A stretch of DNA of 64,000 nucleotides from Candidatus Hydrogenedens sp. (GTDB lineage: Bacteria > Hydrogenedentota > Hydrogenedentia > Hydrogenedentales > Hydrogenedentaceae), in assembly GCA_049968235.1 (NCBI GenBank), contig JBMFRC010000015.1, positions 1-64,000 of the forward strand. The letters run 5' to 3'. Position 1 is the stretch's first letter. The number at the start of each line of letters is the position of its first letter. The position numbers and the translations under genes are program-made. Of the stretch, positions 3,065-32,700 are shown piece after piece. Below the pieces are notes generated by a model, which was given only the letters and a program-made list of their open reading frames with translations, was not told the DNA's origin and did not search any database.

Positions 3065-3451
3065 ATGTCTAAAAAATGTATAATAGTAAAAGATGCTCCA
3101 CCTGCTGTAGGTCCTTATTCACACGCTGTAAAAGCAGGACAATTTTTATTTGTTTCAGGGCAGGGTCCTTTTAATAGGGACGGTTCAGGGGTTGTAAAAG
3201 GAAACTTTTCGGAACAGGTAGAATATACAATGGAGAATTTGAAAATTATACTCAATGGATGTGGATGTAATTTTTCGGATATAGTCAAGATTACAGTATT
3301 TCTAACAGATATGAGTTTATTTTCAGAGTTTAATCAGGTTTATAGTAAATTTTTTGAGAAGGATTACCCTGCTCGCAGTTGTGTGCAGGTATCTCAATTG
3401 CCAGCAGGAATTCCTGTAGAAATTGAAGCCATTGCAATATGTAGAGAATGA
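3065..3451 (+). CDS. ridA: RidA/YjgF family reactive-intermediate deaminase.
   Basis: The RidA-type N-terminal segment APPAVGPYSHAVKAGQFLFVSGQ is present in a 128-aa protein. The gene overlaps the next gene by ATGA. Confidence 0.85.
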   Translation: MSKKCIIVKDAPPAVGPYSHAVKAGQFLFVSGQGPFNRDGSGVVKGNFSEQVEYTMENLKIILNGCGCNFSDIVKITVFLTDMSLFSEFNQVYSKFFEKDYPARSCVQVSQLPAGIPVEIEAIAICRE

Positions 3452-4722
3452 AAGAATTTATGATTAAGAATGGTTATTATTTAATAACTATCATCTATCT
3501 ATTTTTATTAGTGTCTTTTAATACTTTTGCATCTGAATCGATGGAGTTAAACAATCAGGGCGTGGAGGCATATAATCTCAAGGATTATGAGAAAGCGATT
3601 ATTTTGCTATCGCAAGCCATGGCATTAAATCCGGAGAGTGAAGTCATACGAAATAATTTATGTAATGCATTACAAGCACTGGCAGATGAAGAAAGCAAAA
3701 AAAATAATTTTAAGAAAGCAGTAGATTTAGTAGATAAAGCAATTAAAATAAACTCAAATAATTTTTTTGCACATCTTCAAAAGGGGGCTTTTTTATTGAA
3801 TATGGGTCAACTTGTGGATGCCATACGACATTTAGAAATGGCGGTGAAATTAAAACCCGGTTATCTTGATGCTCATGAATTATTAGGGGAGGCTTATTAT
3901 CGGGATAATGATATTTTATCTGCGAGGACGCAATGGGAGTATGTTTTACAGATGGACCCCAATCGAAAGCAATTGAAAGAGCGATATGATAAGGCTTGCC
4001 GTGAAGAAGTTGTGGAAAGTTCTTTCAACAAGACGGTTTCACAATCTCGCCATTTTAATCTGACATATCCTAAAGAAGTGACCTATCAAATTCGTTCATA
4101 TGTTCTTTCGGTATTAGAGCGGGCTTATCTCGAAATAGGAAGAAAATTAGGAGGTGTTTTCCCCTCAGGTCCTATTCAGGTTATTCTTTACGATACTCAA
4201 CAATTTAGATCTGTTGTTCAGATGGGGCAAACTGTAGGGGGTGTTTATGATGGCAAGATACGAATTCCTGTTATGAATGAAGAGGGTGAAGGCTTGTCAG
4301 ATGAAGAAATAAAACGGAGAATATATCACGAATATGTGCATGTGGTCGTTTTTGAGTTACTTAAAGATAAAGTGCCGTGGTGGGTAAATGAAGGGTTAGC
4401 AGAAACTTTCTCAAAAGAATTTTCAAATCGTGAAAAAATGATGTTAGAACAATTTATTAATAATAAGGGACTAATACCTTATAATAATCTTGAAAAAATA
4501 TCAATAAAAGACATGTTTGCGTCGGAGACGAAGATGTCTCAGGCGTATGTACAGTCTCATGCAACCATAAATATGTTATGGAGTAAATATGGACAGGGAC
4601 GATTTCTTAACTTTGTTCAAGCACTTAAACGCAGTGAACATGTGGAAGATGCGTTGCGAAATGTTTATCACCTGGATTATACAAGTTTGTCAAAGGGAGT
4701 TATACAATTTATCCAGAGATAA
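3448..4722 (+). CDS. Secreted TPR-repeat protein with a C-terminal MA-clan (gluzincin, M1-like / Peptidase_MA_2) zinc metallopeptidase motif.
   Basis: A signal peptide and TPR-like repeats are followed by HEYVH(x17)NEGLAE, which matches HExxH...NEGxA of M1-type gluzincins. Confidence 0.55.
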   Translation: MKEFMIKNGYYLITIIYLFLLVSFNTFASESMELNNQGVEAYNLKDYEKAIILLSQAMALNPESEVIRNNLCNALQALADEESKKNNFKKAVDLVDKAIKINSNNFFAHLQKGAFLLNMGQLVDAIRHLEMAVKLKPGYLDAHELLGEAYYRDNDILSARTQWEYVLQMDPNRKQLKERYDKACREEVVESSFNKTVSQSRHFNLTYPKEVTYQIRSYVLSVLERAYLEIGRKLGGVFPSGPIQVILYDTQQFRSVVQMGQTVGGVYDGKIRIPVMNEEGEGLSDEEIKRRIYHEYVHVVVFELLKDKVPWWVNEGLAETFSKEFSNREKMMLEQFINNKGLIPYNNLEKISIKDMFASETKMSQAYVQSHATINMLWSKYGQGRFLNFVQALKRSEHVEDALRNVYHLDYTSLSKGVIQFIQR

Positions 4723-4744
4723 TTTCATAAGTCAAAAAATAGGG

Positions 4745-6769
4745 TTGTATTTTTTCCTCTACTCTTTTATAGGGGTGTCCATTATAGCCTATTCCGATAA
4801 TTGTTCTGTAAAAGGTAGGGTAGTGGATAATAATAATCTTCCTGTAAAAAATGCAGAGGTTTATTGTGAACAAAATCTGATGAGTCCCTTAGTTCAGACT
4901 ATTACAGATAACGAGGGACAATTTAGTTTTTCGGGTCTAATGGAAGGTCCGACCGGTATTTTTGCTACTACGGAAGGTATGGCATGGTCAGGAATTCATA
5001 TCAATTTGCCCGCAGAAGAAAATATAACAGGTCTGGAAATTATTCTTATCCCGGCAAAATCTGTAAAAGGTAAAGTTGTTGTATTAAATGAAAAAGGAAA
5101 AGAAGAAAGTATTTCTGGGGCAGAAATAGACCGTTTTGCAATATTAGGTGTAGAGAAAGTTGCTATACCTTGTTCCAAACTTATTCCGTTTGGATATAAA
5201 AGAGTGATTTCAGATACAGAGGGAGTTTTTTTATTGGATAAAGTGCCAGTGGGCCATACAATATCTTTAAAAGTGGTTCATCCGGAATATGCAGTTACAA
5301 CAGTGGAAAATATTTCTTATGAAGCAGATGCAAAAATAACAATGTCGAAAGGTTGTGTCGTATTGGGTTCTGTATACACTATCCAGAACGATAATAAAGT
5401 AAAAGTTGCTAATTCAGATGTTACTATAAAAAATACCCAAGCCCCATACGAAAGCATATGTGTGAGAACCAATACAGAGGGAGAATTTACAATTCGGCTG
5501 AATCCGGGAGTTTACATGTGTAAAGCAGAAACAAATCAACTGTTAAGTGCGGGATGGGAAATTAAAAAGATTGCAAATTCAATCGGCGAGCATATTCAGG
5601 TGCAGGTATTTCCATCTGTTTATATTTCGGGGCAAATATTAGATGCTATTTCAGGTAAACCAGTTCCAGGGGCTAAAGTCTCTATTGAACAGGGTGGAAA
5701 AAAAGCATTATCTCTTACTACAGGAAGAACGGGGAAATTTCGGGGTAAGGTTGTTCATGGACAGGCTTATATAAAGTTTGAGGCTATTCCAGGCTATACA
5801 ATACCACAACCTTCACAATTAAGAGTTGTGGTAAGTGGAAAAGATGAAATTGTATTGCCCGGTGTATGGGTGAAAAAAGTGGATTCGTTGAAAGTTAAAC
5901 TTGTAGTCCTTCAACAAAAGGTATTAACAACAAATAGAGGAATTGTTTCTGTATTAAACCCTCAGCAATTAGGCTGGTATGCAGGGAATATTGATAATAC
6001 CTTTGAACTAAAACTATCATCAACTCCTGCGGAAGGGAAAATTGTTGGATATGCAGAGATTCCCGAAGAAAATATAGGCAATGTTTTTACGTTGGATAGT
6101 AAAGATATGGGAAAAGTCTGTGAAACAAATCTTTATACATTAGGTACAATAAAAGGTAGAGTCGTGAACAAAGAAAGAACCCCTATTTCTGATGGGATTA
6201 TTTCATGTGTATTGAAAGAAGTGGGAACAAGTCAGGAATATTTATTATGGCAGATACTTCTATCAGCAGATGGAACTTTTTATTGGAATTCTATTATTCC
6301 ATTCAAAACTCTTCTTTTTAAATTGTATGATAATAATGGTTCCTTATTATGGCAATCTTCTGAAATGCAATTTTTAGAAGGAGAGAATAAAGATATAGGT
6401 GATATTATAATAGAAAAGTCTGTGACTAGGAAAAATGTGAGTTCATTACTTCGTTCTAATTATAAAAATTTATGTGGAGGAAGTGAAATCGTAGATATGT
6501 TATTTAAAGGACCCTCTGTTCTTGTTTATGTTGATAGTGCAGAGGTTCTTTTTATGCAAGAAGTATTGGCGAATATAAGAAATATTTTCGGTAGTGGTAT
6601 AAATGTTGGGATGATACTTACCAATGAAATTGATTGTAATGATATAAGTATTCCAGTAATAACAGGGCAACGACCTTCATTAGCCACAACATATTTAATA
6701 GGTGAAGATGGTAATTTGATATGTGAAACTTTTGGTTTACCTTTAATGATACGGATGATAAAAAAGTAA
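4745..6769 (+). CDS. Secreted protein with multiple carboxypeptidase-regulatory-like (CarbopepD_reg) beta-sandwich domains and a C-terminal cysteine-less TlpA/redoxin-like fold.
   Basis: Repeated GRVVD.../GQILDA.../KGRVV modules are present. In the C-terminal segment, VLVYVDSAEVLFMQE sits where TlpA-like proteins have FWATWCPPC. The tracked ORF starts at 4589 and overlaps the upstream gene. The true start is probably TTG 4745 or GTG 4775, just before a hydrophobic stretch, but this is uncertain. Confidence 0.5.
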   Translation: MYFFLYSFIGVSIIAYSDNCSVKGRVVDNNNLPVKNAEVYCEQNLMSPLVQTITDNEGQFSFSGLMEGPTGIFATTEGMAWSGIHINLPAEENITGLEIILIPAKSVKGKVVVLNEKGKEESISGAEIDRFAILGVEKVAIPCSKLIPFGYKRVISDTEGVFLLDKVPVGHTISLKVVHPEYAVTTVENISYEADAKITMSKGCVVLGSVYTIQNDNKVKVANSDVTIKNTQAPYESICVRTNTEGEFTIRLNPGVYMCKAETNQLLSAGWEIKKIANSIGEHIQVQVFPSVYISGQILDAISGKPVPGAKVSIEQGGKKALSLTTGRTGKFRGKVVHGQAYIKFEAIPGYTIPQPSQLRVVVSGKDEIVLPGVWVKKVDSLKVKLVVLQQKVLTTNRGIVSVLNPQQLGWYAGNIDNTFELKLSSTPAEGKIVGYAEIPEENIGNVFTLDSKDMGKVCETNLYTLGTIKGRVVNKERTPISDGIISCVLKEVGTSQEYLLWQILLSADGTFYWNSIIPFKTLLFKLYDNNGSLLWQSSEMQFLEGENKDIGDIIIEKSVTRKNVSSLLRSNYKNLCGGSEIVDMLFKGPSVLVYVDSAEVLFMQEVLANIRNIFGSGINVGMILTNEIDCNDISIPVITGQRPSLATTYLIGEDGNLICETFGLPLMIRMIKK

Positions 6770-6797
6770 ACATTATGTATAAAATGGACTTACCTTT

Positions 6798-8663
6798 ATG
6801 AAAAAATGGATTTGTCTGTTTTTGTTTTTAACAGAAAGTTGTCTACTAAGTAATGTTGTATCTGCTTATGATATAAAAGGGATAGTATATCAGCCCAATG
6901 GGAAACCCGCTTCTGATGTAGATATATGGCTGGTTCATGCTATTCAAGGAACAGCAACAAAGAAGTCGGATAGAGAAGGAAACTTCATTTTTTCAAATTA
7001 TAATTTTGGAGAAGTAACTATTGTCGCGAGAGATAATAAACAACGGATAGGAGGAAGTTCTTTTGTTCTTATGCAGGATGAAAGAGAGATAAACATTTCA
7101 CTTATCGAGGGTGTAAAACAGAAATTGAAGGTTTATAATCACAATTTAAGTCCTATTTCAGGTGCTTATATTCGACGATTTTGGATAGGGGATAAATTTT
7201 GTATCCCTGCAGAAGAGTTGGCTGAGCAAGGGTATGGTTGGTTGCGGAGCAATGATGAAGGAGAAATTATTTTACCCTGTATGCCTATGAATGGGTTTAT
7301 CAAGATAGTTGTATCTCATGTGGATTATGCAGATGCCTATTTGCCATTTATTCCGGTGAATGAAAATAAAACTATGGATATAATTCTACAAAAAGGAACT
7401 TTAATACGGGGAAGAGTAGTTAAAGATGATAAAGGAATAAAAGACGCTTTGGTTATCCCTTTACAGAAAGGGGCTAATAACTTGCGTTTTATACTCCCTG
7501 TTAAAACTGATAAAGAAGGTTTATATCGCTGTCATCTTGATAGAGGAGAATATCGAATTTTTGCAACACATCCAGACTACCCCAATACAATTCCAAAAGA
7601 AATCTCTATTACAAATATTACGGAAGAAGAAATTGTGATTGACTTTACTTTTCAAAATCCGCTGTATTTACAGGGTAAAGTTTTACTATATGATGGAACT
7701 CCCTGCAAATTAGCGAAAATAACAACAATTGAGGAAAAGGGTGTAGAGGATTTTGTATTTACGAATGAAAAAGGGGAATATGTATTAAAATCAAATTCTG
7801 AAAAGTTAAAAGTAAAGATTCTACCTCCACCAGGCTATATTACAGAAGAATTGCCAGAGATTCCTGTTGATTTTAAGGGTGAAAAAAGAATCACAATGCC
7901 TCTGATTCGTGTGAAAAAATTGCCCGAGATTCAAGGGAAAATAATGTTTAATGATGGAAAAGAAGGTGACCGCGTTTTTATTTATAGCACAAATTTAGAG
8001 TTACCGTTTTATGCAATTACGGATAATGATGGAAAGTTCCAAATTTTGTTGGGTATAACTCCTGATGTAAACCCGGTTCATTTTGTGGCAGAGCATGCTT
8101 TGAGATTTGTTAAAAGTGAGTTTGTTGTGGATATGTATAAAGAAAATAAACCTTTAGATATTGTTCTAAACCCTTACGAACCTAATCAAGATAAATTTGT
8201 GAATAAAGAGCGTGAAAATCGTTTATTAACTTTAATAGATAAACCTGCACCGGATATAAAATGCCGTACATGGTTTAATTTTAAGGGTAACCAAAATCCT
8301 TTGCGTGATATGGAAGGGAAGGTCATTTTATTACTATTTTGGGGTGGATTTGACAGAACGCCATTGGGACGGAAACATATTGAAGAGATGCGTGCCTTAT
8401 TTGATTTATATAAAGGTATTTCTGATGTCCAGTTATTATCTATTCATGATGGCACTTTTGATGATGATGAAATACAAAATTATATAAAAGAATATGGGAT
8501 AGAATTTCCTGTAGGTGTAGATACGGATGATGCCAATACCTTTATCCAATATACAATAGACTTTATCCCCCAGTTTATACTTATTGATAAAAAAGGAATT
8601 ATCCGTTATTCCGATGTAGAAGGACGTGCTGTAGAACTTATTAAAGTATTAAGAAGATTATAA
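6798..8663 (+). CDS. Paralogous secreted CarbopepD_reg-domain protein with a C-terminal cysteine-less TlpA-like thioredoxin fold.
   Basis: The protein has a signal peptide (MKKWICLFLFLTESCLLSNVVSAYD). The C-terminus GKVILLLFWGGFDRTPLGRKHIEEM...EFPVGVDTD...FIPQFILIDKKGIIRY aligns with TlpA/ResA, but the CxxC is replaced by DRTP. Confidence 0.55.
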   Translation: MKKWICLFLFLTESCLLSNVVSAYDIKGIVYQPNGKPASDVDIWLVHAIQGTATKKSDREGNFIFSNYNFGEVTIVARDNKQRIGGSSFVLMQDEREINISLIEGVKQKLKVYNHNLSPISGAYIRRFWIGDKFCIPAEELAEQGYGWLRSNDEGEIILPCMPMNGFIKIVVSHVDYADAYLPFIPVNENKTMDIILQKGTLIRGRVVKDDKGIKDALVIPLQKGANNLRFILPVKTDKEGLYRCHLDRGEYRIFATHPDYPNTIPKEISITNITEEEIVIDFTFQNPLYLQGKVLLYDGTPCKLAKITTIEEKGVEDFVFTNEKGEYVLKSNSEKLKVKILPPPGYITEELPEIPVDFKGEKRITMPLIRVKKLPEIQGKIMFNDGKEGDRVFIYSTNLELPFYAITDNDGKFQILLGITPDVNPVHFVAEHALRFVKSEFVVDMYKENKPLDIVLNPYEPNQDKFVNKERENRLLTLIDKPAPDIKCRTWFNFKGNQNPLRDMEGKVILLLFWGGFDRTPLGRKHIEEMRALFDLYKGISDVQLLSIHDGTFDDDEIQNYIKEYGIEFPVGVDTDDANTFIQYTIDFIPQFILIDKKGIIRYSDVEGRAVELIKVLRRL

Positions 8664-9104: not shown

Positions 9105-10022
9105 ATGAATTATATATATAAATTTTTAATATTAATCATTTGCTATTCAGGTTTTGCTCCTGTTTTAGATATTTTCCCATCCAATAGGAAGAATAATTTT
9201 CTATATTTACATATAAGACAATCCATAATACTTTGGTCATGGCTATTTCTCATCGTATTGTTTATTGGTGTTTTTGCCTTATTATTGTCCTTTCTTGTAG
9301 TTTATTTCCCAGATTTTTATCAGAATTGGGATATTGAATTATGGTTTATTAGTATTACGCGGAAAATATTATTGTGCTGGCTTATTTTTTTTATATTTGG
9401 TTTTGGAAGTGCTCTATTAAGTTCTGTTCATTTATTGCCTTTTATTGCTTCATGGATGAAAAATAAATGGCTTTTGCTATTCTCAAAATTTGTAAATACT
9501 CTATTAATAATCATTGTGTCTTTTATAGGCGTAATAAATATATATGCTTATTTTTTGTTGTATCCGCGTGAGAATGTTCCAAAGGTTTATGTTCTATATG
9601 ACAATCTTGATTACCTGCCACAGTGTATCTTTAATATAGGTTTTTTCCGAATAATTACAACAGGTTGTCATATTTATGGAAGAGGAGGTGTAGCATTGAG
9701 AGTTGTGGATAAAGAGAGTTTTGCGGAATCACTTAAAAATGCAGAAATTATCTTTGTCGCCTCGCATGGATGGGAGGAAGGAATGTTGTCACATGAAGGA
9801 ATCATTAAGCCTGAGGATATTCAAAAAATGGAAATAAATAAACATTTAAAATTTATATATCTATCTGCATGTAAAAGTGGTGCTCAACGGGAGGCATGGG
9901 AAAGAGTTTTAAGCCCTGCAAAGGTATTAACTTATAAAAGGATGACCGCAACATTTGAACATGCATGGTGGTTCTGGAAGAATGCCCCAAGGGTAATTCG
10001 GGGAGAATATAAAGAGGAGTAG
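9105..10022 (+). CDS. Membrane protein (4 predicted TM helices) with a C-terminal caspase/clan-CD-like His-Cys dyad module.
   Basis: The C-terminal ~110 aa contain IIFVASHGWEEG (His221) and KFIYLSACKSG (Cys256). Each catalytic residue follows a hydrophobic block, and the two are 35 aa apart, as in caspases (SHGEEG ... QACRG) and CHAT domains. Confidence 0.35.
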   Translation: MNYIYKFLILIICYSGFAPVLDIFPSNRKNNFLYLHIRQSIILWSWLFLIVLFIGVFALLLSFLVVYFPDFYQNWDIELWFISITRKILLCWLIFFIFGFGSALLSSVHLLPFIASWMKNKWLLLFSKFVNTLLIIIVSFIGVINIYAYFLLYPRENVPKVYVLYDNLDYLPQCIFNIGFFRIITTGCHIYGRGGVALRVVDKESFAESLKNAEIIFVASHGWEEGMLSHEGIIKPEDIQKMEINKHLKFIYLSACKSGAQREAWERVLSPAKVLTYKRMTATFEHAWWFWKNAPRVIRGEYKEE

Positions 10023-21409: not shown

Positions 21410-24400
21410 CTATTTAGCAGATAAGGTTCTCTGTTTTGAAGATGTTAAGATTTTAATAGAAGAAAAACATTTCATAAGTATATTGGATATATCTTCTGTG
21501 TAGGTGTAGAACAGTGGAACGACTACAAGCGTTAAGATTGTTCCTAAAATTAATCCTCCTACGAGGGCTTTTCCTAAACCTGAAAACATAACTGCACCTC
21601 CTGTTTTTGCGGTAGCTAATGGAACAAGTCCAAGAATAGTGGTTAATGCGGTCATCATCACCGGTCGGAGTCGGTCTTTACTTGCTTCAATGATTATATC
21701 TGTTAATTCTTTATTTTCTTTCTTCCGCAGGAAGTTAATATGGTCAACAATTACGATACCATTATTGACAATGACACCTACCATAAGGACGCAACCGATA
21801 AGAGTAATCATATCCCAATATGAATTTGTGAAGTAGAGTGTCCATGATGACCCGACAAGTGAAAGAGGAACGGTCGTTAAAATGACAAGAGGGAGAAGAA
21901 TGGATTCAAAAGTAGCACACATCACGATGTAAATTAATACGATAGCCATACTCATCGTTATTGCAAAATTAGTTAGATTCGTCTGTATTTCTTCTAACTC
22001 AATACCATAATTAAGGTTATATCCATCAGGTAATTCAAGACGAGATATGATTTCTGTTAAGTCTTTTTTTATACGGGTTAAGTCTTCTGTGTTCGCTTTT
22101 GCCCGAAAGTTAATAACATTCCTCCCATTATATCTTTTGACTACATCTGGTCCTGGTTTCCGTTCATAAGTTACTACTTGATGTAAAGGAATTAATCCTC
22201 CTTTACTGGAAATAACCATTAAATTATCTAAATTAGATTTAGTTTTTCTATCTTCCTCCTTATATTGAAGCCATACAGGTATTTCGCGTGTTCCCTCTTT
22301 TAAGTAGGGAAGTTGGGCTCCTCTCAATGCGGTATCAATGGTTTGGGCTATTGTAAAGGGATTAACTCCCTGTTCGTCTATTTGCCATTCGTTCATAGAT
22401 ACACGCATCTCCTGTTTTTTTTGTTCAACATCCATTGTTATATCTGTAAAGATGGGATTCTCTTGCAGTATGGATTTTATCCTTTGTGCTTGTTCATAAA
22501 GAATAGTATTATCTTTGCCTGTTAACCGTAAGGTTACTTCTCGTGATGTTCCAGATTCACCGGTATCTGCAATAGAGAATTCTAATTTTCCACCAGGAAT
22601 TTGAGAAGGTAAAGTATTTTTTACAATAGTCAAAGCCTCTTCTGTAGTACAAGGAGGATTTTCGCCAATTTCACCATCATCTTCTGTGTATAAATAAACA
22701 TGAATTTCTCCTCCATTATCTCCATGAAAAAGAAGAATATTTTTTATAGCAATGGCATCTCTAAGGGATTCCAATTTTTGTGAAAGTTGGTCAAATAAAT
22801 CTCTTACGCGGTTTGACTCAAAATTCTGGTCGAGAGTTACTTTTATATCTACTTCGCGTGTGTCTAATTTAATCAGGTCTTTCATACCTACGGATTTTAC
22901 AGGAATTAAATATGAGACTATTAAGAAGATAGATAAGCCAATAAGGAAAGATAATCTGTTTTTGAGAGACCATCTCAAACAAAGTTCTAATAAAAAGTAA
23001 ATTTTCTCTAATATTTTGAAACTTCCCGCTTTATCCCGGACAAAAATTAATATTTTACTTAGTGATATGAATATTTTGTTCTGCGAAATAATTTTATTTG
23101 AGGGGAATCCAAAATTTAATATCAGTGGAACAATAGTAAGAGCAATGACTAAACTTCCCAATAAAGCAACAATTAAAGGACCGCCTAATTGTTGCATAAA
23201 AATTGACATTCGTCCCGCTTCCAGATAATACATAGGCAGAAATACAACAATGGTTGTTAGTGTTGATGCCGAAATGGCTACTCCTACTTCAGATGCCCCC
23301 CGAGTAGAACTTGTCGTTTTATCATAACCTAACTGCTGATAACGGATGATATTTTCAACAACAACAATAGCATTGTCTACTAACATACCTACTGAAATAA
23401 TAAGGGATGCCATTGTTATTATATTGAGGGACATATCTGCAAAATACATAAAAATGATACCAATCATTAAAGAAGAGGGTATAGCAAAAGCAACAATAGT
23501 GGTAGGAATTATGCGATGTAAAAACAATAAAAGGACAATAAAAGCCATTATTCCACCATAAATCCCCTCTCCGAAAAGATTATTAAGTGCACGATTTATT
23601 AAGTCCGATTGGTCAAAAAATATTTTTGTTGAACTTCCGGAAAATGCATCTTCGGTTAGAATGTTATCCAGTTCTCTTTTAATACGGTCACAAACTGCTA
23701 CTGCATTCGCTTCCGATTCTTTTATCACTAATAGGACAACACCTCCTTTGCCATCCAGAGCTACCCGTTGAGACTTTTCACGAGAGCCAAATTGGACTGT
23801 AGCAATATCTTTCAATCGCATTCCATCTCTATTGATTACAAGATTTTCGATTTCTGAGAGGTTTCGGTACTCACCTGATAAACGAGCAAAGTATTTTCTA
23901 TTATTTTGAGTTACAGAACCGAGGGATATGTTTATAGATGAGGAACGAAGTGTATTAAGGAGAGAAACTATAGGGATGTTAAGGCTATTCAGTCGGTCTT
24001 GAGAAACCTCAATAAGTACTTCTTTTTCAGGAATGGGTGAGATTATTTGTATATCTGCAACTCCATCTAACCTTCTAAGACGGGGAATGAGAGATGTCCT
24101 GACCAGATACACATAATTTTCTTCATCGCCCGATTTAAAAAGACCAACTGCAAAGACAGGAATAGAACCTGAACTAAATCGTTGTATAATGATTCGTTGA
24201 ACTTCTTCCGGTAAAGTCATCTTTAATCGTTCTATACGGTCACGCACTTCTGCTGTTGCAAAAGTCATATCAGTATCAAGATTAAACCACATATTCACAG
24301 TACAACCATTGGAAGAACTGGTAGTTGCGATACTTCTTAACCCGGGGATAGTTCGAAATTCACCTTCTACGGGGATGGCTATTTGCTGTTCGACCTGTTC

Positions 24401-24574
24401 CGGCGAACCTCCGGGATATGGGATAAAACAACCTATGAAAGGACGGTCTACTTTAGGAAGGAATTTTAAAGGAATACGATACCACGAGATAACCCCTAAT
24501 ACCAGGATTGATATAGAAATCATAATCATAGTAATAGGTCGGTTAATGGCTAATTTGGGTAACGACCAATTCAT
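21410..24574 (-). CDS. RND efflux permease (HAE1/AcrB-MdtC family).
   Basis: The protein is 1054 aa with 12-TM architecture and two large periplasmic loops. The start codon directly abuts the stop codon of the upstream RND gene. Confidence 0.85.
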   Translation of the reverse strand: MNWSLPKLAINRPITMIMISISILVLGVISWYRIPLKFLPKVDRPFIGCFIPYPGGSPEQVEQQIAIPVEGEFRTIPGLRSIATTSSSNGCTVNMWFNLDTDMTFATAEVRDRIERLKMTLPEEVQRIIIQRFSSGSIPVFAVGLFKSGDEENYVYLVRTSLIPRLRRLDGVADIQIISPIPEKEVLIEVSQDRLNSLNIPIVSLLNTLRSSSINISLGSVTQNNRKYFARLSGEYRNLSEIENLVINRDGMRLKDIATVQFGSREKSQRVALDGKGGVVLLVIKESEANAVAVCDRIKRELDNILTEDAFSGSSTKIFFDQSDLINRALNNLFGEGIYGGIMAFIVLLLFLHRIIPTTIVAFAIPSSLMIGIIFMYFADMSLNIITMASLIISVGMLVDNAIVVVENIIRYQQLGYDKTTSSTRGASEVGVAISASTLTTIVVFLPMYYLEAGRMSIFMQQLGGPLIVALLGSLVIALTIVPLILNFGFPSNKIISQNKIFISLSKILIFVRDKAGSFKILEKIYFLLELCLRWSLKNRLSFLIGLSIFLIVSYLIPVKSVGMKDLIKLDTREVDIKVTLDQNFESNRVRDLFDQLSQKLESLRDAIAIKNILLFHGDNGGEIHVYLYTEDDGEIGENPPCTTEEALTIVKNTLPSQIPGGKLEFSIADTGESGTSREVTLRLTGKDNTILYEQAQRIKSILQENPIFTDITMDVEQKKQEMRVSMNEWQIDEQGVNPFTIAQTIDTALRGAQLPYLKEGTREIPVWLQYKEEDRKTKSNLDNLMVISSKGGLIPLHQVVTYERKPGPDVVKRYNGRNVINFRAKANTEDLTRIKKDLTEIISRLELPDGYNLNYGIELEEIQTNLTNFAITMSMAIVLIYIVMCATFESILLPLVILTTVPLSLVGSSWTLYFTNSYWDMITLIGCVLMVGVIVNNGIVIVDHINFLRKKENKELTDIIIEASKDRLRPVMMTALTTILGLVPLATAKTGGAVMFSGLGKALVGGLILGTILTLVVVPLFYTYTEDISNILMKCFSSIKILTSSKQRTLSAK

Positions 24575-27500
24575 TTATTTTCTTCCCCTGTGGAACATAC
24601 TCGAAAACATATAATTTGCCATAGGGATTATCCAGAGTGTTAGAAGAGTACTCGAAGAAAGTCCTGCCATAACAGTTAATGCCAGAGGTTGTCTTAATTC
24701 AGAACCTTCACCATGTGATAATAACATGGGCAGTAAACCGAGAACCGTTGTTAATGTTGTCATCAATATAGGTCTGAGACGAACCACCGCTGCCTGTACG
24801 ATAGCATCATGTGTAGAAAGCCCTCTTGAAACAAGTTGGTTGGTATAGTCAATTAGAACAATAGCATTGTTTACTACTATTCCTGCAAGAACTATAGAAC
24901 CTAAAAAAACCATTACATTTAAATTTGTATTTGTCCAGAATAGCACCAAGACAACACCAATAAAGGCAAGTGGAACAGAAAACATAATCAAGATAGGCAA
25001 CCAGATAGATTCAAATTGACATGCCATAACTACATAAACAAGAAAAACAGCTAACAATAATGCGAAACGTAAACTTTGATAGGAAGTTGATAGTTCACGA
25101 TTTTGACCACCAAGTGTAATAAAGAATTCGCGTGGTTTTTCTACTTCTCGTAATGATTCTAAAACTTCATTAGATACACTGGCTAAATCCCTTCCCTCAA
25201 TATTTGCTGTAATCAGGGCGACTCTTTTTTGCCCTATTCTTCGAATATCACTGGGTCCTGTATCCTCTATAATTCGGGCTACATCACAAAGACGAATGGG
25301 TGTTGTTCCTTCTACTATGGATAACTGCTTTAAGTCTTCTATGCTTTGTAAATAGGTTTGGTCTGTACGTACACGAATATCTATCTTGTCTCCTCCCCGA
25401 TTGAATTTGGTGGCAATTTCCCCTTGGATTTCTCTTCTTAATTTATTTGCTACTTCCATTGGAGTTAGCCCTTTTTCAGCAAGAAGTTCTCTATCCAACT
25501 GAATAAGTAGTTCAGGATACCCCGACTGTATAGAAATATCAGCATCTTTTATCCCCTTTATAACTTTTACTTTTTGAAGACATTTTCCGCCAACACTTTT
25601 TAATATGTTCAAATCATCACCAAAAATTTGGACTTCTAAATCGTTTTTCATTGTAAAGAGTGTAGGTAACGAAAAAACTATAGATTCCTCTGGAAGGGGT
25701 ACTATAGAAGAACGAATTTCATCAATAATTTTGTCTTGTATCCTTGCTGTTTGATTTCGATTTTTCAACAAAACAGTAAATGATGCTTTGTTTTCATTTT
25801 TCCCTTTACTTTCCGATTTGGAACTTTCAGTTCCCACCTGTAATGTAACTCGTTCAACTAAGGGATGCTCTTTAAGTACTTTTTCGATTCTTGATGCTTT
25901 TTGTAAAGTCTGTTCTAATTTAGTTCCTGCACGCGTTTCAAAAAGAATATTAAATTCCCCCTGTTTCATTGCAGGGATAACTTCCTGTCCAAGGGTGGGT
26001 AGTATCTTTAATGTGTAAATAAAAAGGACTACAGCAAGAAGTATGAAAATAGGTGAAAATTTCAAACTATAAGAAAGTGAAATTCTATAAAAATATTGAA
26101 AACTTTCAAATCCGATATGAAAGATTTGGAGGGGTATATAAAGTGTCCAATGGATAACTTTCTTCAAAATAAAAAACAGTATAAGTATGATGACAAAAAT
26201 AGGGAGAGAGAAAAGAATTGAGAAGAAGATGATGGGATAAAGAATAAAATTTAATATCAACCATGAAGTAAGTTTTAACAAAAGATTAAAAGGAAAGAAA
26301 ACAATTCTAATTATATCTTTGATTGTAGATTGTGAAAGTCTAAATTTGAATATATCAAGAAAATGTTTTTTAGATTTTCTAAAATGTCTTTTTATTATGA
26401 AGATTAAAGCATATAAAAACGAAGATATTGTCTTTTTCTGCTTTACATTTTTATAAAATAGAAATGTACGCACAGGATGGAAAATATATTGAGTATTTTC
26501 GGATATAAAGTGTGTTTTTGATACAACCAGTGGATTAAAGAATAAAGCAACAAACAATGAAGCAAGGAGTGAAAAGGTAACAGTTAATGCAAGGTCCCCA
26601 AAAATTTGTCCTGCTATCCCTTCTACAAAAGCCACCGGGAAAAATACCGCTACAGTCGTTAGTGTTGAAGCGATTACAGCAGAACTTACTTCTGATGTCC
26701 CGCGAATGGCAGAATCGACGACAGAATCTCCCTCTTCTCTACATCGAGCAATGCTTTCTAATACTACGATAGAATTATCCACTAACATACCGATACCTAA
26801 TGCAAGTCCTCCCAATGACATAATATTAAGAGAAATATCTCTCATGAACATGGGTATAAAAACGGTAATAATAGAAATAGGAATGGCAAAACCTATTGTA
26901 AGAGTACTTCGTAATTCACGAAGGAAAAGATAGAGAATGAGTAATGCTAATATACCTCCATTAATAGCAGAATTTTGAACTTCCTGTATAGAACTGATAA
27001 TAAACTGTGACTGGTCGCTAATGATATGAATTTTTGCATCAGCGGGGAGTGAACTAAGCAAATTCTTTTTCTTAAACAATTCTTTCCGTGATTTTGGGTC
27101 CTCAAGAGTATGTTGGCCATCAGCATCTTTAGCAACAGGTTGAAGTCCAAAGGACATCTGCTCATCTATTAATTCAGATAAACTTTTCTTCCTTTCAATT
27201 CCTAACAAATCTTTTATAAGATTACAAACTGTAACTGTATTTGAATCCCCTTCTTTGTAAATCTCTATTTCTATAGCATCTTCACCATTAATTCGGATAA
27301 TTGTATCTCTTTCTTTATTTCCCCACCGGACAGTAGCAACATCTTTTAATTTAATAGGAACTGATTTTTTCTGCACATTAGATATACTTTGAGAAGAAGT
27401 TGATAACGATTTTATGGGTAAATTGGATATCGGATTGGAATCCAGAGTAGGTATGCCAATAGATGAGGAAATAATTACATTTTTAATATCTTCAATATCC

Positions 27501-28255
27501 TTAAATTCTTTAAGGGTCCGCACAATATATTCCGTTTTCCCTTCAACTAATTTTCCCCCCGCAACATTAATATTCTGACTTGCCAGACTTTGAGTAATAT
27601 CATCTAATGACAATCCTAATGATTTAAGCATTTTGCTATCTACCAGAATTTGTATCTCTTCTTCCTGCCCTCCTTTTACTACAACCTGTGCAATCCCTGT
27701 TTCTGCCTCCAAATCACTTTTGAGTTTTCTTTGGACAGATTCGCGAAGTGTTGTTAAATATTCATTTTTTTCCTCTGAATCTAAATTATTTGGCGGAGTA
27801 ATTCCTACACGAATTACAGGGTCTAAATTTGGATTAAATCTTAGAATAACAGGTTTTTTAGTTACCTCTTTGGGTGGTTCAAATAAGTCCAATCGGTCAC
27901 GCACATCTTGTTGGGCAACATTCATATCTGTGTTCCAGAGGAATTCCAGAGTTATTTCAGAAAGTCCGACAGATGAAACACTACTAATTTCAACAAGTCC
28001 ACTAACAATACTTAACATTTCTTCAAGAGGACGAGTAACCAACTTTTCTACATCTTCGGGTGCTGCTCCCTCAAATTCTGTTTGTATGGTCAGAGAAGGA
28101 TATGAGATTTCAGGCATCAGATTAATAGGGAGTTTTTGATAAGAACGCCAACCGAAAACAATAATAGTAGTGAATATCATTAATGTTGTTACGGGACGGT
28201 ATATGGGAAAAGATATTAAGGACGATGTCGTTTGTTTTATTGGTTGTTCGCTCAC
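24575..28255 (-). CDS. RND efflux permease (AcrB/MdtB-like) with an atypical ~150-aa hydrophobic insertion between TM6 and TM7.
   Basis: The protein is 1226 aa and carries RND TM2-6 and TM8-12 blocks. There are extra hydrophobic segments after TM6 (...IVFFPFNLLLKLTSWLILNFILYPIIFFSILFSLPIFVIILILFFILKKV...). Confidence 0.8.
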   Translation of the reverse strand: MSEQPIKQTTSSLISFPIYRPVTTLMIFTTIIVFGWRSYQKLPINLMPEISYPSLTIQTEFEGAAPEDVEKLVTRPLEEMLSIVSGLVEISSVSSVGLSEITLEFLWNTDMNVAQQDVRDRLDLFEPPKEVTKKPVILRFNPNLDPVIRVGITPPNNLDSEEKNEYLTTLRESVQRKLKSDLEAETGIAQVVVKGGQEEEIQILVDSKMLKSLGLSLDDITQSLASQNINVAGGKLVEGKTEYIVRTLKEFKDIEDIKNVIISSSIGIPTLDSNPISNLPIKSLSTSSQSISNVQKKSVPIKLKDVATVRWGNKERDTIIRINGEDAIEIEIYKEGDSNTVTVCNLIKDLLGIERKKSLSELIDEQMSFGLQPVAKDADGQHTLEDPKSRKELFKKKNLLSSLPADAKIHIISDQSQFIISSIQEVQNSAINGGILALLILYLFLRELRSTLTIGFAIPISIITVFIPMFMRDISLNIMSLGGLALGIGMLVDNSIVVLESIARCREEGDSVVDSAIRGTSEVSSAVIASTLTTVAVFFPVAFVEGIAGQIFGDLALTVTFSLLASLFVALFFNPLVVSKTHFISENTQYIFHPVRTFLFYKNVKQKKTISSFLYALIFIIKRHFRKSKKHFLDIFKFRLSQSTIKDIIRIVFFPFNLLLKLTSWLILNFILYPIIFFSILFSLPIFVIILILFFILKKVIHWTLYIPLQIFHIGFESFQYFYRISLSYSLKFSPIFILLAVVLFIYTLKILPTLGQEVIPAMKQGEFNILFETRAGTKLEQTLQKASRIEKVLKEHPLVERVTLQVGTESSKSESKGKNENKASFTVLLKNRNQTARIQDKIIDEIRSSIVPLPEESIVFSLPTLFTMKNDLEVQIFGDDLNILKSVGGKCLQKVKVIKGIKDADISIQSGYPELLIQLDRELLAEKGLTPMEVANKLRREIQGEIATKFNRGGDKIDIRVRTDQTYLQSIEDLKQLSIVEGTTPIRLCDVARIIEDTGPSDIRRIGQKRVALITANIEGRDLASVSNEVLESLREVEKPREFFITLGGQNRELSTSYQSLRFALLLAVFLVYVVMACQFESIWLPILIMFSVPLAFIGVVLVLFWTNTNLNVMVFLGSIVLAGIVVNNAIVLIDYTNQLVSRGLSTHDAIVQAAVVRLRPILMTTLTTVLGLLPMLLSHGEGSELRQPLALTVMAGLSSSTLLTLWIIPMANYMFSSMFHRGRK

Positions 28256-29687: not shown

Positions 29688-29776
29688 AAAAGTGGCATTA
29701 TTATAAAGTGATATAATTCATGTTATAATTGTATACTATTGTTGTGAACAATAAGAGCACAACTGGAGAAATTTAT

Positions 29777-32700
29777 ATGAGAAAATCTGTATATTTTTTG
29801 TGTTTTCAAAGCATCCTATTTTTCACAATATTGTTGACAATTACAGGTTGTCCTCGAGAAGAAGTGGGAGGTTATTTAATTGTAGAACCGACATCGGTGG
29901 ATTTGGGTTCTAATGATGATAGTGCAGACATTCTGGTATGGAAAAATACAACGACCAGTTCTATAGGTCCAATTGTTGTTGAATCCCAAATTCCGTGGAT
30001 TTCTGTGGAAGGTTGTGCTACTGTTAATGATGAATGTTATAGTTTGGGACCTTTGGATAAAAAACGCATACGGATAAGAATAGACAGGGAAAAAACAGAC
30101 CTCGGACCTAATTCAGGAAATATAATCGTTCGGGCTACGAATGCTCCTTCAACAACGGTCCTGATAACTTTAATTGATTTAATAAAAGTGGATTTTGATG
30201 CTTCGAGTAAATTTACGACAGTAAACGAGGCAATTAGATTTTTTAATCAAAGTGCAGTTCAATCAGGGACTATACGAAAAGTAACATGGGATTTTGGAGA
30301 TGGTCAAACCTCTAATGATTATAATCCAACATATTTCTATCAGAAACCCGGTAATTATACAGTTACCTTGACTGTAGAGACTGATAAAGGTATTGAGAAA
30401 AGAGTAAAAGAGAATTTTATAAATGTAATTAGTGGTAACCTTACTGTTGATTTTTCTGCAAGTTCTCAGATAGTTCTATTGGGCGAGGAAGTTCAGTTAA
30501 TAGATAGAAGTCGTTCCGAAAAAGAAAATATTATTAATCGTTTCTGGGATTTCGGAGATGGAAAAACCAGTAATGAAGTAAATCCAAGGCATAAATATGA
30601 AAATCCTGGAATTTATTCCGTTACTTTAACTGTATATACAGAGAATCAAAATAAATCATTAACTAAAGAAGGGTATATAACTGTTCAAGAAGGTGTGCCT
30701 CCTAAAGCAAAATTCTCTGTTAGTCAAATCAAACCATTTATATATATTCCGGTTCAATTTTCTGATTTATCGGAAGCAGGAAGTTCGCCTATTACTGACT
30801 GGTTATGGGATTTTGGCGATGGAAACACTTCAACAGAACAAAATCCGCAATATGCGTTCACAAGGATTGGGAATCAGCAAATAAAATTAACAGTTAAGAA
30901 CAAGTTCGGTATTAGTTCCTTTTCACTGCCTGTAGAAGTTATTTATCTACCTCCTACCGCAGAATTTTCTGCTGAACCACTTGTTTTGTATGAAGGAGAA
31001 TCGGTTTTCTTTGCTGATTTATCCATAAAGGGGACAGAACGAATCATTCGCTGGTTGTGGAATTTTGGAGATGGTGGTACCGAGACCATAGAATATCAAC
31101 CCTATTCTCATGAGAATGGGAATACAAGATATGCCTATGCACAACCCGGTATTTATTCCGTATCTCTAACGGTAAATACAAGCACAACTTCAAATAATGA
31201 AAGTAGTATTACAAAAAGTTCTTATATTACAGTTCACAAACCACCTGTGCCCCAATTAAGTGTTTCTACAAGAAGCCCTGTAATACAGAAAGAAGTGCTT
31301 TTCCTCAATCGAACAGCAATAGGAACAGAGACAGAGTTGACTTTTGAATGGAATTTTGGCGATGGGTCTCCTGTCAAAACTATGAACACTACGGATTCTG
31401 TTTCACATATTTATTCAGAAGCCGGAGTTTATGATGTTACATTAAAGGTAAAAACGCCATTAAAAACATTCGAAAGTGAACCTGTTAAAGTTTATGTAGA
31501 TGCTCCACCTATTCCAGATTTTGAGTATACCCCCAAACGGATAACAGTAGAAGATTTAGTACAGTTTACGGATTTGTCTAACTCTGAAGGAACTCGACCT
31601 ATAATAGGTTGGGTATGGTCATTTGGCGATGGTTCTGGTGTATCAACCATGCAAAACCCAACACATCGCTTTGAAAGTCCCGGAAAATATAAAGTAGAGT
31701 TGTATTTAGTATTTACCCATTCCAAGAGTGGAGAGCAACTTAAAACATCTGCAGTTTCAAAAACATTGACCATCGGTTCTGCAATTCCTCCAACAGCCGG
31801 ATTTAAAATTGAAAGTCCTTGTGCCATTGTAGGAAGTGAAGTAAAGTTTTACGACCAATCAAAAACGGGAACAGCACCCATTGTCAGTTGGGAATGGGAT
31901 TTTGGTGATGGTGAAACTTCAAATGACCCATCACCAATACATGTATATTCTACTCCAGGAACTTATACCGTAAAATTAAAAGTTCAAACAGAAGGGGGAC
32001 TTGAATCAGAAGTCGTAAAACAAGATTGCATAGACGTAAGTAATTATGCAAGTCCTTTAGATATATTTGTAAGAGAACGCGACTCTGAATATACATGGAC
32101 AACGCCGGTAGAATATCCTGTAAATTATACCTCAGGTTCAGTTTCTATACGATTAGCGACCGCATATATAACGCGAATGACATCACAAGCCTGGCGCGAG
32201 GCAGATGATTTGTATAGTGGAAGAATATGGAAACATAATTTGGCCATTATTGTTCCAGAACGAAAACGAAATAATACCGCCTTATTATTCATTGATGGAG
32301 GTAACATCAATAGTAATCCACCTAATGAATCAGAAAGACTGTTCTTTGGTGAACTTGCCGCTTTATCCGGCTCTGTAATTGTTCATATAGACAATGTTCC
32401 TAACCAGCCTATTGTATTTATCGATGACTACGATGCAGAAAGGAATGTTATTCTTAAGTCGCGTACAGAGGATGACATTATTGCTTATAGTTATGACAAG
32501 TATATGAATGAATATAAGAATGGTAACGACGATTATCATTGGCCATTATTACTGGCAATGGCAAAATCTGCTGTCCGTGCTATGGATACAACCCAATTTA
32601 TATTGGAAGATAATGCACCATCGGAATTTATTATATCAGGAGGTTCGAAACGCGGATGGACTACATGGTTAACAGGATTAACAGACTGTCGTATAAAAGC

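Follow-up and report, generated by a model that had tools for sequence, protein, structure and literature searches.

A conserved pair of predicted exported beta-sandwich proteins in Hydrogenedentota, one of which carries a cysteine-less TlpA-type domain

The locus described here lies in a 64,000-nucleotide stretch of DNA from Candidatus Hydrogenedens sp. (contig JBMFRC010000015.1), referred to below as the window. In agreement with the original prediction of four genes running in the same direction, the open reading frame (ORF) list of the window contains four co-directional ORFs at positions 3065-3451 (g1), 3448-4722 (g2), 4589-6769 (g3) and 6798-8663 (g4), all located on the + strand, as are all features given below. 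No terminator-like sites were detected between g1 and g4 in a scan of the window, in which the numbers of promoters and terminators equaled those expected for shuffled sequence and are uninformative. Gene g1 (3065-3451) encodes a 128 aa protein of the Rid family of enamine/imine deaminases (PF01042, 136 bits, E = 7.5e-40), which scored 147 bits against TIGR00004, above the curated threshold of 106.25. No signal peptide is visible in its sequence. The earlier RidA call is thus upheld at the level of the family; since the score against the equivalog model NF008490 is below the cutoff (103 versus 222), g1 is a Rid-family member and not a proven RidA orthologue. The ORF of g2 starts at position 3448 and the predicted ATGA overlap between g1 and g2 is present in the window. 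In relatives, however, the RidA gene ends with TAA and g2 starts at the ATG equivalent to window position 3460, which is the start conserved among them, and the overlap, which is specific to the window, is therefore probably incidental.

Gene g2 (3448-4722) encodes a predicted exported protein composed of TPR repeats (TPR_2, 1.7e-17; about aa 31-176) and a Peptidase_MA_2 domain (PF13485, 3.3e-13, 50.4 bits versus a cutoff of 32.4; about aa 233-419). The HExxH plus downstream Glu (WxNEG) arrangement of gluzincins is present as HEYVH (aa 294-298) followed by WWVNEG, with E315 as the third ligand (positions 4327-4392). The motif HE[YT][VT]H-x16-WW.NEG is invariant in 24 out of 24 g2 relatives, down to 38% identity. 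These results agree with the TPR-gluzincin assignment made before and indicate that g2 is a predicted M1-like zinc peptidase with an intact motif, although a solved homologue of its peptidase domain was not detectable by sequence. The NCBIfam model of BepA matched g2 weakly and in the TPR region only (E = 0.0037). BepA of E. coli is a periplasmic protein consisting of TPR repeats and a zinc metallopeptidase. Like BepA, g2 is predicted to be exported and has both TPR repeats and an HExxH zinc peptidase, but its peptidase domain is of the Peptidase_MA_2 type (M1-like, WxNEG third ligand) instead of M48 and the domain order is reversed, the TPR repeats being at the N-terminus. Of the two proteins, BepA is the one linked to outer-membrane protein assembly.

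According to the original prediction the four genes form a single cassette, in which two dead redoxin domains would capture substrates for the TPR-HExxH peptidase. Within the genus the genes are indeed co-oriented and tightly spaced, and in several orthologs the g3 ORF begins before g2 has ended. In 14 of 30 species-level loci RidA and g2 precede g3-g4, with RidA directly 5' of g2 in all 14 loci that have g2, and because the g2 proteins of linked loci share only 38-49% identity this linkage is older than the genus. The intact catalytic motif in all g2 relatives would also suit such a cassette. However, g2 was not present within at least 4-6 kb upstream in 16 of the 30 loci, so that the linkage of all four genes in the same order, as expected for a single operon or cassette, was observed in only 14 loci, and in loci L025 and L041 three opposite-strand genes separate RidA-g2 from g3. 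In addition, the convergent and functionally unrelated rpsT gene is retained beside g4 about as often (22 of 50 loci), which indicates that the conservation of the neighborhood is partly plain synteny, and there is no obvious place for RidA in the scheme. An ORF in which g2 and g3 are fused (P0023, on a JGI contig) was considered as a functional link and rejected; since the same species has separate genes (P0019), it is most simply explained as a frameshift or assembly artefact, which is the probable cause. Taken together, these data make substrate capture for the peptidase quite unlikely. Gene g3, on the other hand, is located directly upstream of g4 in 45 of 46 species-level loci, and given this adjacency versus 14 of 30 for RidA plus peptidase, the conserved unit is the g3-g4 pair and not a four-gene cassette. 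RidA and the TPR-M1-like peptidase would constitute a separate two-gene unit, an ancestral neighbor of g3-g4 that in the genus is co-oriented with the pair without an intervening terminator-like site but is not an obligatory part of it; the link between the pair and the nearby peptidase is loose. The adjacency of g3 and g4 could reflect co-regulation without physical interaction.

As predicted, g3 (4589-6769 as listed) and g4 (6798-8663) are paralogues (BLASTP 2e-20, 25% identity over about 460 aa), each containing several CarboxypepD_reg domains (1.7e-29 in four stretches for g3; 1.9e-18 for g4). Both the scores against PF13620, which are above threshold, and the fold identify these as transthyretin-like repeats. 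The AF2 model of g3 (mean pLDDT 71) contains six beta-sandwiches followed by a C-terminal alpha/beta domain; g4 has five beta-sandwiches (aa 24-456) followed by a C-terminal TlpA/DipZ-type thioredoxin-fold domain. Hydrophobic N-terminal segments, judged by eye, suggest that both proteins are exported. The true start of g3 is uncertain because the ATG used by its closest relative reads AGT in the window, at about position 4730. A candidate ATG at position 4661, which corresponds to the start of ortholog P0021, would produce a 62-nt overlap with g2; the NCBI call (GTG start, 664 aa) drops the hydrophobic N-terminus. In the g4 family the roughly 85 full-length representatives vary little in length (601-650 aa), and nearly all g3-g4 loci are labeled Hydrogenedentota, with g4 identities going down to about 28-30%. 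The g3 orthologues came from a genome scan; a homologue search with a g3 profile added none to them, and most of the proteins it recovered were generic CarboxypepD_reg proteins.

Structurally, the repeats best match pilins, adhesins and S-layer/scaffoldin domains (6fwv, 3phs, 3kpt and SlaB 8qox). Together with the uniform family length and the lack of an enzymatic domain, these matches would fit a purely structural role of g3 and g4 as stalk, adhesin or matrix, the thioredoxin-fold domain then being a stable cap or oligomerisation plug that binds no ligand. Against this, domain-model searches detected neither a signal for sorting or anchoring at the C-terminus nor any match to the PEP-CTERM or LPXTG families, and a T9SS-domain match in g3 (aa 294-317, E = 0.078, 13 bits versus a cutoff of 23) is sub-threshold and internal. 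Moreover, the ex-active-site loop, the residues following beta-2 and the cis-Pro loop of the g4 domain are the most conserved parts of the protein, which is unexpected for a mere cap. We therefore consider a purely structural role rather unlikely.

The thioredoxin-fold domain of g4 (aa 475-621; 8220-8660) is the most conserved part of this protein. It has the N-terminal hairpin and central insert of the TlpA/ResA fold and displays sequence homology to ResA (3e-10) and to 3eyt (2e-6). Alignment with the FWGTWCKPC sequence of ResA identifies FWGGFDRTPL (aa 514-523; 8337-8366) as the ex-active-site loop, in which D519 and L523 stand where ResA has its two CxxC cysteines. A catalytic CxxC was found in none of 87 representatives, the consensus at this position being FWGGF[D/A]. 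The original prediction had named the normal absence of the cysteines among homologs of a known non-redox family as an outcome that would speak against it; the cysteines are indeed absent throughout, though from a family that is not a named one. P591 is invariant across the 87 sequences and I590-P591-Q592 is kept, the cis-Pro state being predicted from the sequence. This domain contains 31 of the 64 positions of the protein that are conserved at 90% or more, W515-G-F518-D519, H550-D551, G573/D575, Y585 and I590-P591 being among the most conserved. When the three most conserved peptides were picked automatically, the ex-active-site loop and the cis-Pro loop accounted for two of them. As judged from the family alignment, the g4 domain is redox-dead and has been without CxxC since the origin of the family, and as such would therefore be unable to perform thiol-disulfide exchange. 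Since conservation is high even though the cysteines were lost long ago, the domain is probably a binder and not a redox catalyst. The conservation pattern fits a retained non-redox binding role, and this part of the binding or scaffolding role proposed earlier stands, whereas its coupling to the peptidase is weakly supported.

Another explanation is that the g4 domain is not dead but performs new chemistry through its lone conserved cysteine, Cys489 (8262-8264, in the N-terminal strand; a 1-Cys type mechanism), and/or through a His/Asp metal site formed by D519, H550, D551 and D575. H550 and D551 are nearly invariant and 83% of the family (69 of 83 members) retain Cys489, for which no consistent intramolecular partner was found. 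Nevertheless, the other 17% have G, T, V, I, L or A in place of Cys489, and about one fifth of the family has Ala in place of D519, which is unusual for catalytic or metal-ligand residues. In addition, Cys489 is off the peroxidatic position, there is no peroxidatic PxxxTxxC motif, and the match to the NCBIfam PrxU model was far below its cutoff (E = 0.028, 14 bits versus 270). New chemistry is consequently most improbable. Co-variation analysis gave no signal for an intermolecular disulfide between Cys489 and the cysteines of g3, Cys489 varying too little for this purpose.

Results obtained for the C-terminal alpha/beta domain of g3 (aa 575-681, numbered from nt 4724; 6446-6766) were less clear. 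The order of its AF2 elements, b-a-b-a-b-b-b-b-a, equals that of the g4 domain minus two helices. When alignments from 46 to 87 genomes were compared by hhalign, the g3 and g4 C-termini gave a co-linear match (P = 0.0094 and 0.0037) that was better than 100 out of 100 shuffles; with shallow alignments the match comprised only 12 columns (E = 0.13). A Pfam scan (E<=10) of the C-terminal 139 aa, both in g3 and in a distant orthologue, yielded only noise, and a profile of 45 g3 C-termini retrieved no redoxin among PDB sequences, its best match, TbtD (E = 0.12), being taken as chance. The domain may be a truncated thioredoxin-like fold without helix alpha-2. CxxC never occurs at the aligned position: the window reads YVDSAE there, within the YVDSAEVLF site (6527-6553), and a single Cys ('YC..EA') is present in 57% of the family. 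Mean conservation is 0.42, with three conserved positions, versus 0.61 for the g4 domain. Cys584 and Cys638 co-vary perfectly (both present in 26 sequences, neither in 20, none discordant). Hence, the claim that each protein ends in a Cys-less TlpA fold, and that dead redoxins had been duplicated, is clear for g4 only; for the g3 domain, a truncated derivative that evolves fast is the most that can be claimed.

The explanation that we favor, with about an even chance of being correct, is that g3 and g4 are a pair of predicted exported, rod-like stalks, g4 bearing a non-redox binding head and g3 acting as its partner module. The two would have arisen by an ancient tandem duplication and would be Sec-exported envelope proteins typical of Hydrogenedentota, each a chain of transthyretin-like beta-sandwiches, capped in g4 by the DipZ/TlpA-type domain. 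The groove of the latter (W515, F518, D519, H550, D551, D575, Y585 and cis-Pro591), on which purifying selection is stronger than elsewhere in the protein, would most likely make it a ligand- or peptide-binding head on the stalk. The C-terminal domain of g3 would be a shortened, rapidly evolving derivative of the g4 domain, held by a Cys584-Cys638 disulfide, and most likely a partner module in a g3-g4 hetero-oligomer. The presence of Ala at position 519 in about one fifth of the family indicates that the binding pocket is not strictly invariant, which counts against this proposal. A bolder version, which we regard as very doubtful, holds that the g4 domain does more than bind passively, having formed a new active or metal-binding center (D519, H550, D551, D575, Cys489) from the old redox groove; placed on a beta-sandwich stalk and accompanied by its degenerate paralogue g3, it would provide a new, Hydrogenedentota-specific envelope function, possibly together with the TPR-M1-like peptidase.

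To our knowledge, very few members of Hydrogenedentota have been cultured, and hardly any of their proteins have been characterized by experiment. A literature search for the CarboxypepD_reg plus redoxin architecture, Cys-less TlpA domains and Hydrogenedentes proteins found nothing relevant and no paper on CarboxypepD_reg plus redoxin proteins, in line with the statement that this is not a described system. On present evidence, though, g3-g4 is a modestly interesting, uncharacterized, phylum-specific family of familiar domains and not a new kind of system. Because the pair is present in essentially every sampled species, and the more so because a cysteine-less thioredoxin fold is its most conserved part, a core envelope function in the phylum is likely. 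The g4 protein appears to be a clean natural case in which a TlpA-type redoxin has become a pseudo-enzyme that is subject to strong purifying selection; with a degenerating paralogue next to it and CxxC-keeping relatives in other phyla, it should be useful for studying the re-use of redox folds. The name given by NCBI to a 100% identical protein, 'redoxin domain-containing protein [Candidatus Hydrogenedens sp.]', would overstate what g4 can do.

The nearest relatives of the g4 domain are the extracytoplasmic thiol-disulfide oxidoreductases TlpA, ResA and CcmG, particularly those of the DipZ-like branch (SPOA0173, 3eyt; the C-terminal domain of DipZ, 5cyy; YkuV, 2b5y; and the Trx-like domains of NHLRC2, 6gc1, and SOQ1, 7djk). 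The TlpA-type N-terminal 'AP...W.N' strand, the cis-Pro loop and the 'FPVG.D' and 'LIDK.G' motifs are kept in g4 and, as in NHLRC2, SOQ1 and DipZ, the domain forms part of a larger protein with several domains. Unlike TlpA, ResA and CcmG, g4 is fused behind five transthyretin-like sandwiches and has D and L in place of the CxxC cysteines in this protein, CxxC being absent from every family member; no gene for a partner reductase (DsbD/CcdA) was seen near g4. Redox-inactive thioredoxin folds lacking CxxC are kept as substrate- or client-binding modules in the multidomain proteins PDI (b/b' domains), CnoX/YbbN (SxxC thioredoxin domain) and UGGT (TRXL domains), and in UGGT they are combined with beta-sandwich domains, as in g4. 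These proteins act in protein folding quality control, and g4 is likened to them by general architecture only; it differs in belonging to another fold branch (TlpA/DipZ type) and in its stalk architecture. Extracytoplasmic sandwich chains with a TlpA-like end, as in g4, are found in CarboxypepD_reg plus TlpA-like proteins of Planctomycetota, Poribacteria and others (P0040, P0101, P0108 and P0131, for example), themselves uncharacterized. In contrast to g4, these are much longer (940-1230 aa), some have an N-terminal ECF sigma-70 region, and they lack a conserved paralogue pair. WCxPC is intact in P0101, P0108 and P0131 (WCAPC/WCGPC), unlike in g4, and partly or fully lost in P0031, P0040, P0042, P0047 and P0097, which are CarboxypepD_reg plus redoxin proteins of other phyla. 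Since the relatives in other phyla vary in the retention of WCxPC, loss of the cysteines recurs in this architecture.

Four co-directional ORFs occupy positions 3065-8663 (+) of the window, and their products are 100% identical to public proteins that NCBI attributes by name to a Candidatus Hydrogenedens sp. MAG. The first gene, g1 (3065-3451), encodes a Rid-family protein, RidA (PF01042, 7.5e-40; TIGR00004, 147 bits versus a cutoff of 106). The product of g2 (3448-4722) has an N-terminal hydrophobic segment, at least four TPR repeats (residues 31-176) and a Peptidase_MA_2 domain (3.3e-13). Across relatives with identities down to 38% its motif HEYVH-x16-WWVNEG never varies (24 of 24), and sequence searches detected no solved homologue of the peptidase domain. 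The proteins encoded by g3 (ORF 4589-6769) and g4 (6798-8663) each contain several CarboxypepD_reg beta-sandwich domains (1.7e-29 and 1.9e-18, respectively), and that of g4 also has a redoxin-type domain. The two genes are paralogues; they are co-linear over ~460 residues (BLASTP 2e-20, 25% identity), and cross-hits between them were seen again among relatives. No terminator-like site was found between the four genes, and a promoter scan across them gave background levels only.

The ATGA overlap of the original prediction is present between g1 and g2 (3448-3462) but is specific to the window. The RidA stop is TAA in four relatives, and the g2 start of the two closest (loci L001 and L004) is the ATG that corresponds to window position 3460; in this strain the TGA stop at the end of RidA therefore probably creates the overlapping ATG as a by-product. 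The start of g3 is likewise uncertain. Where the closest relative has ATG-CAA-AGG (L001 5925-5940) the window reads AGT-CAA-AAA (4724-4735), so that the NCBI call for the identical protein (P0013, GTG start, 664 aa) would drop the hydrophobic N-terminus. The reading frame is open upstream of the AGT position, and the orthologues P0017 (TTG start), P0019, P0020 and P0021 also begin upstream of it, the start of P0021 aligning with window ATG 4661, which overlaps g2. Either this in-frame ATG would be used, or g3 would be start-damaged in this MAG. On a JGI contig of 7016 bases, a 527-aa ORF (P0023) joins a complete g2 TPR-peptidase in frame to the start of g3; this fusion is probably a frameshift or assembly artefact, because the genes are separate in the same lineage (P0019). 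In the Candidatus Hydrogenedens terephthalaticus assembly (L003 / L010 5932-7972) g3 is split into ORFs of 425 and 263 aa, indicating a frameshift or sequencing error.

The proposal that g4 ends in a TlpA-type fold lacking its cysteines was confirmed. Residues 475-621 match AhpC-TSA (1.1e-11), Redoxin and Thioredoxin_8, the NCBIfam ResA model (1.8e-11) and ResA structures (4nmu, 3.2e-10). HMMER aligns FWGGFDRTPL with FWGTWCKPC, so D519 and L523 stand in for both cysteines. An AlphaFold model built from a 14-sequence alignment has the full TlpA-type succession of elements (mean pLDDT 86), and its top structural neighbours presumably belong to the DipZ-like branch of the TlpA family. An exhaustive profile search, taking one representative per 50%-identity cluster, gave ~85 full-length family members of uniform length (601-650 aa). 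CxxC was found in the active-site stretch of none of 87 aligned sequences (83 representatives, the window protein and three longer relatives), the consensus being FWGGF[D/A]xxxxG, so that the cysteine-less state is ancestral for the family.

The redoxin-type domain is also the most conserved part of g4, with a mean commonest-residue frequency of 0.61 versus 0.47-0.52 for the sandwiches, and contains 31 of the protein's 64 positions that are conserved at >=90%. These include W515, G517, F518, D519, H550, D551, V572, G573, D575, F582, Y585, I590, P591, D597 and G600, and the former active-site loop and the cis-Pro loop are two of the three top-conserved peptides that an automatic choice supplied for the genome scan. 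Such conservation suggests that the former active site still has a function and is no decaying relic. Around H550, D551, D519 and Cys489 a new site, catalytic or metal-binding, is conceivable. We disfavour this reading, since about one family member in five has another residue in place of Cys489, and about as many have one in place of D519; Cys489 is a lone cysteine that 83% of members conserve, and it has no regular partner. Redox-inactive thioredoxin domains are known from PDI b', CnoX and UGGT TRXL, and by analogy with these, together with the conservation pattern, a non-redox binding role is the most likely one for g4.

The original prediction placed a dead redoxin fold in both paralogues; it holds for g4, but is not established for g3, whose C-terminal domain is not a recognisable redoxin. 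Neither the window protein nor a 31%-identical orthologue gave a Pfam match in this region at E<=10, and a 45-sequence profile of g3 C-termini found no redoxin among PDB sequences at E<=10. The domain is nevertheless placed as in g4 within the co-linear paralogue. Alignment by hhalign of 46 g3 C-termini with 56 or 87 g4 domains was co-linear over 68-76 columns (P 0.0094 and 0.0037), the first score (19.7) lying above all 100 column-shuffled controls (maximum 18.4). In an AF2 model (pLDDT ~78-88) strands and helices are ordered as in g4 (E581-584, H587-595, E598-602, H605-622, E627-632, E645-647, E656-659, E665-670, H676-680; residues counted from nt 4724), without helix alpha-2 and one short helix. 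A further point in favour is that the residue aligned with g4 D519, the position of the first CxxC cysteine, is Cys in 57% of the g3 family (context 'YC..EA'), although V or A in the genus Hydrogenedens. We consider a thioredoxin-derived origin fairly probable. The partial co-variation of the aligned cysteine with Cys532 in the sandwich before it (22/8/4/12) suggests that its role is structural. Cys584 and Cys638 (nt 6473-6475 and 6635-6637) co-vary perfectly among 46 species (26 with both, 20 with neither, 0 discordant), indicating an intradomain disulfide. Unlike its g4 counterpart, the domain is less conserved than any other part of g3 (mean 0.42, three conserved positions).

One genome per GTDB species was scanned, and 57 loci matched g4 substantially. 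The majority carry the label Hydrogenedentota, Hydrogenedentes or Hydrogenedens; the others are 'uncultured bacterium' MAGs with no such label, co-assembly MAGs given as Nitrospirales or Nitrospiraceae, and one given as Rhodothermaeota. Since the whole neighbourhood (MshEN, BNR_2, HGSNAT, g1-g4, rpsT and onward) is syntenic within the genus, conservation at that level says little. For the counts of gene order, the four products were compared with all loci by tblastn. The g3 gene lies directly upstream of g4 in 45 of the 46 loci with enough upstream DNA, but among the 30 with >=3.5 kb of upstream sequence just 14 have RidA-g2 upstream of g3; RidA adjoins g2 in 14/14 loci. These counts speak against a four-gene cassette: the invariant unit is the g3-g4 pair, and RidA-g2 is a second unit, an old and often lost neighbour. 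Where linked, the gap between RidA-g2 and g3 ranges from overlap up to 2.7 kb. It holds a small lipoprotein gene in L019 and L055 and another in L032, and in L025 and L041 three opposite-strand genes, one encoding a GGDEF response regulator and one a protein that by eye appears HDOD-like. A convergent rpsT follows g4 in 22/50 loci. The gene order also weakens the proposal that g3 and g4 capture substrate for the HExxH peptidase g2, leaving it a less likely alternative.

We favour a model of the g3-g4 pair itself, in which both proteins would be exported and stalk-like. The g4 protein would display a head of TlpA/DipZ-type origin that binds without redox chemistry, and g3 would bear a degenerate, disulfide-stabilised version, probably as partner module of a hetero-oligomer. 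The hetero-oligomer is suggested by the fact that both paralogues are universally kept, and kept next to each other.

Several other genes of the window were inspected. In a 305-aa protein (9105-10022, +) several membrane helices at the N-terminus are followed by a C-terminal domain bearing the motifs 'ASHG' and 'SACKSG'; the protein's only Pfam match is a faint one to CHAT (caspase-like; E 0.11), and homologues lie near g3-g4 in distant Hydrogenedentota too (L008, L019, L037, L038, L055). A 1603-aa protein (29729-34540, +) combines seven PKD domains with a PhoPQ-activated pathogenicity-related domain (PF10142), and a 776-aa ORF (38996-41326, -) matched no Pfam family at E<=1e-5. Transporter and glycosidase ORFs at 21410-28255 (-), 35614-38037 (+), 51857-54259 (+) and 56138-59968 (-), namely two tandem AcrB-type transporters (1054 and 1226 aa), a rhamnosidase, a melibiase-type alpha-galactosidase and a GH116 glycosidase, together with the genes for a BNR_2 sialidase-like protein and HGSNAT that precede RidA, suggest a glycan-degrading lifestyle.

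CarboxypepD_reg chains with a terminal TlpA-like domain also occur in other phyla, often at much greater length and in some cases joined to an ECF sigma-70 region. Among such proteins P0101, P0108 and P0131 keep WCAPC or WCGPC, P0031 and P0276 keep SRPC, and P0040, P0042, P0047 and P0097 have lost the CxxC motif. This mixture shows recurrent cysteine loss on the architecture, and a plausible ancestor would be a reductase displayed on a beta-sandwich stalk. Three of these proteins (P0040, P0108, P0131; ~1230 aa) carry an N-terminal sigma-70/ECF region before the chain and the TlpA-like domain; P0108 and P0131 have an intact CxxC, whereas P0040 has lost it. Such an architecture may link envelope redox sensing to transcription.

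A literature search found no paper on this architecture or on the g3/g4 family, which is real, ancient and phylum-wide but consists of familiar parts; cysteine-less thioredoxin folds are common. In fold and sequence the g4 domain is a member of the TlpA-like superfamily, and the database name 'redoxin domain-containing protein' is right structurally but misleading functionally. Because the defining catalytic feature is missing, neither thiol-disulfide oxidoreductase nor peroxiredoxin is a suitable label for the domain, and we class g4 as a thioredoxin-fold module, inactive in redox chemistry, on a stalk of repeats.
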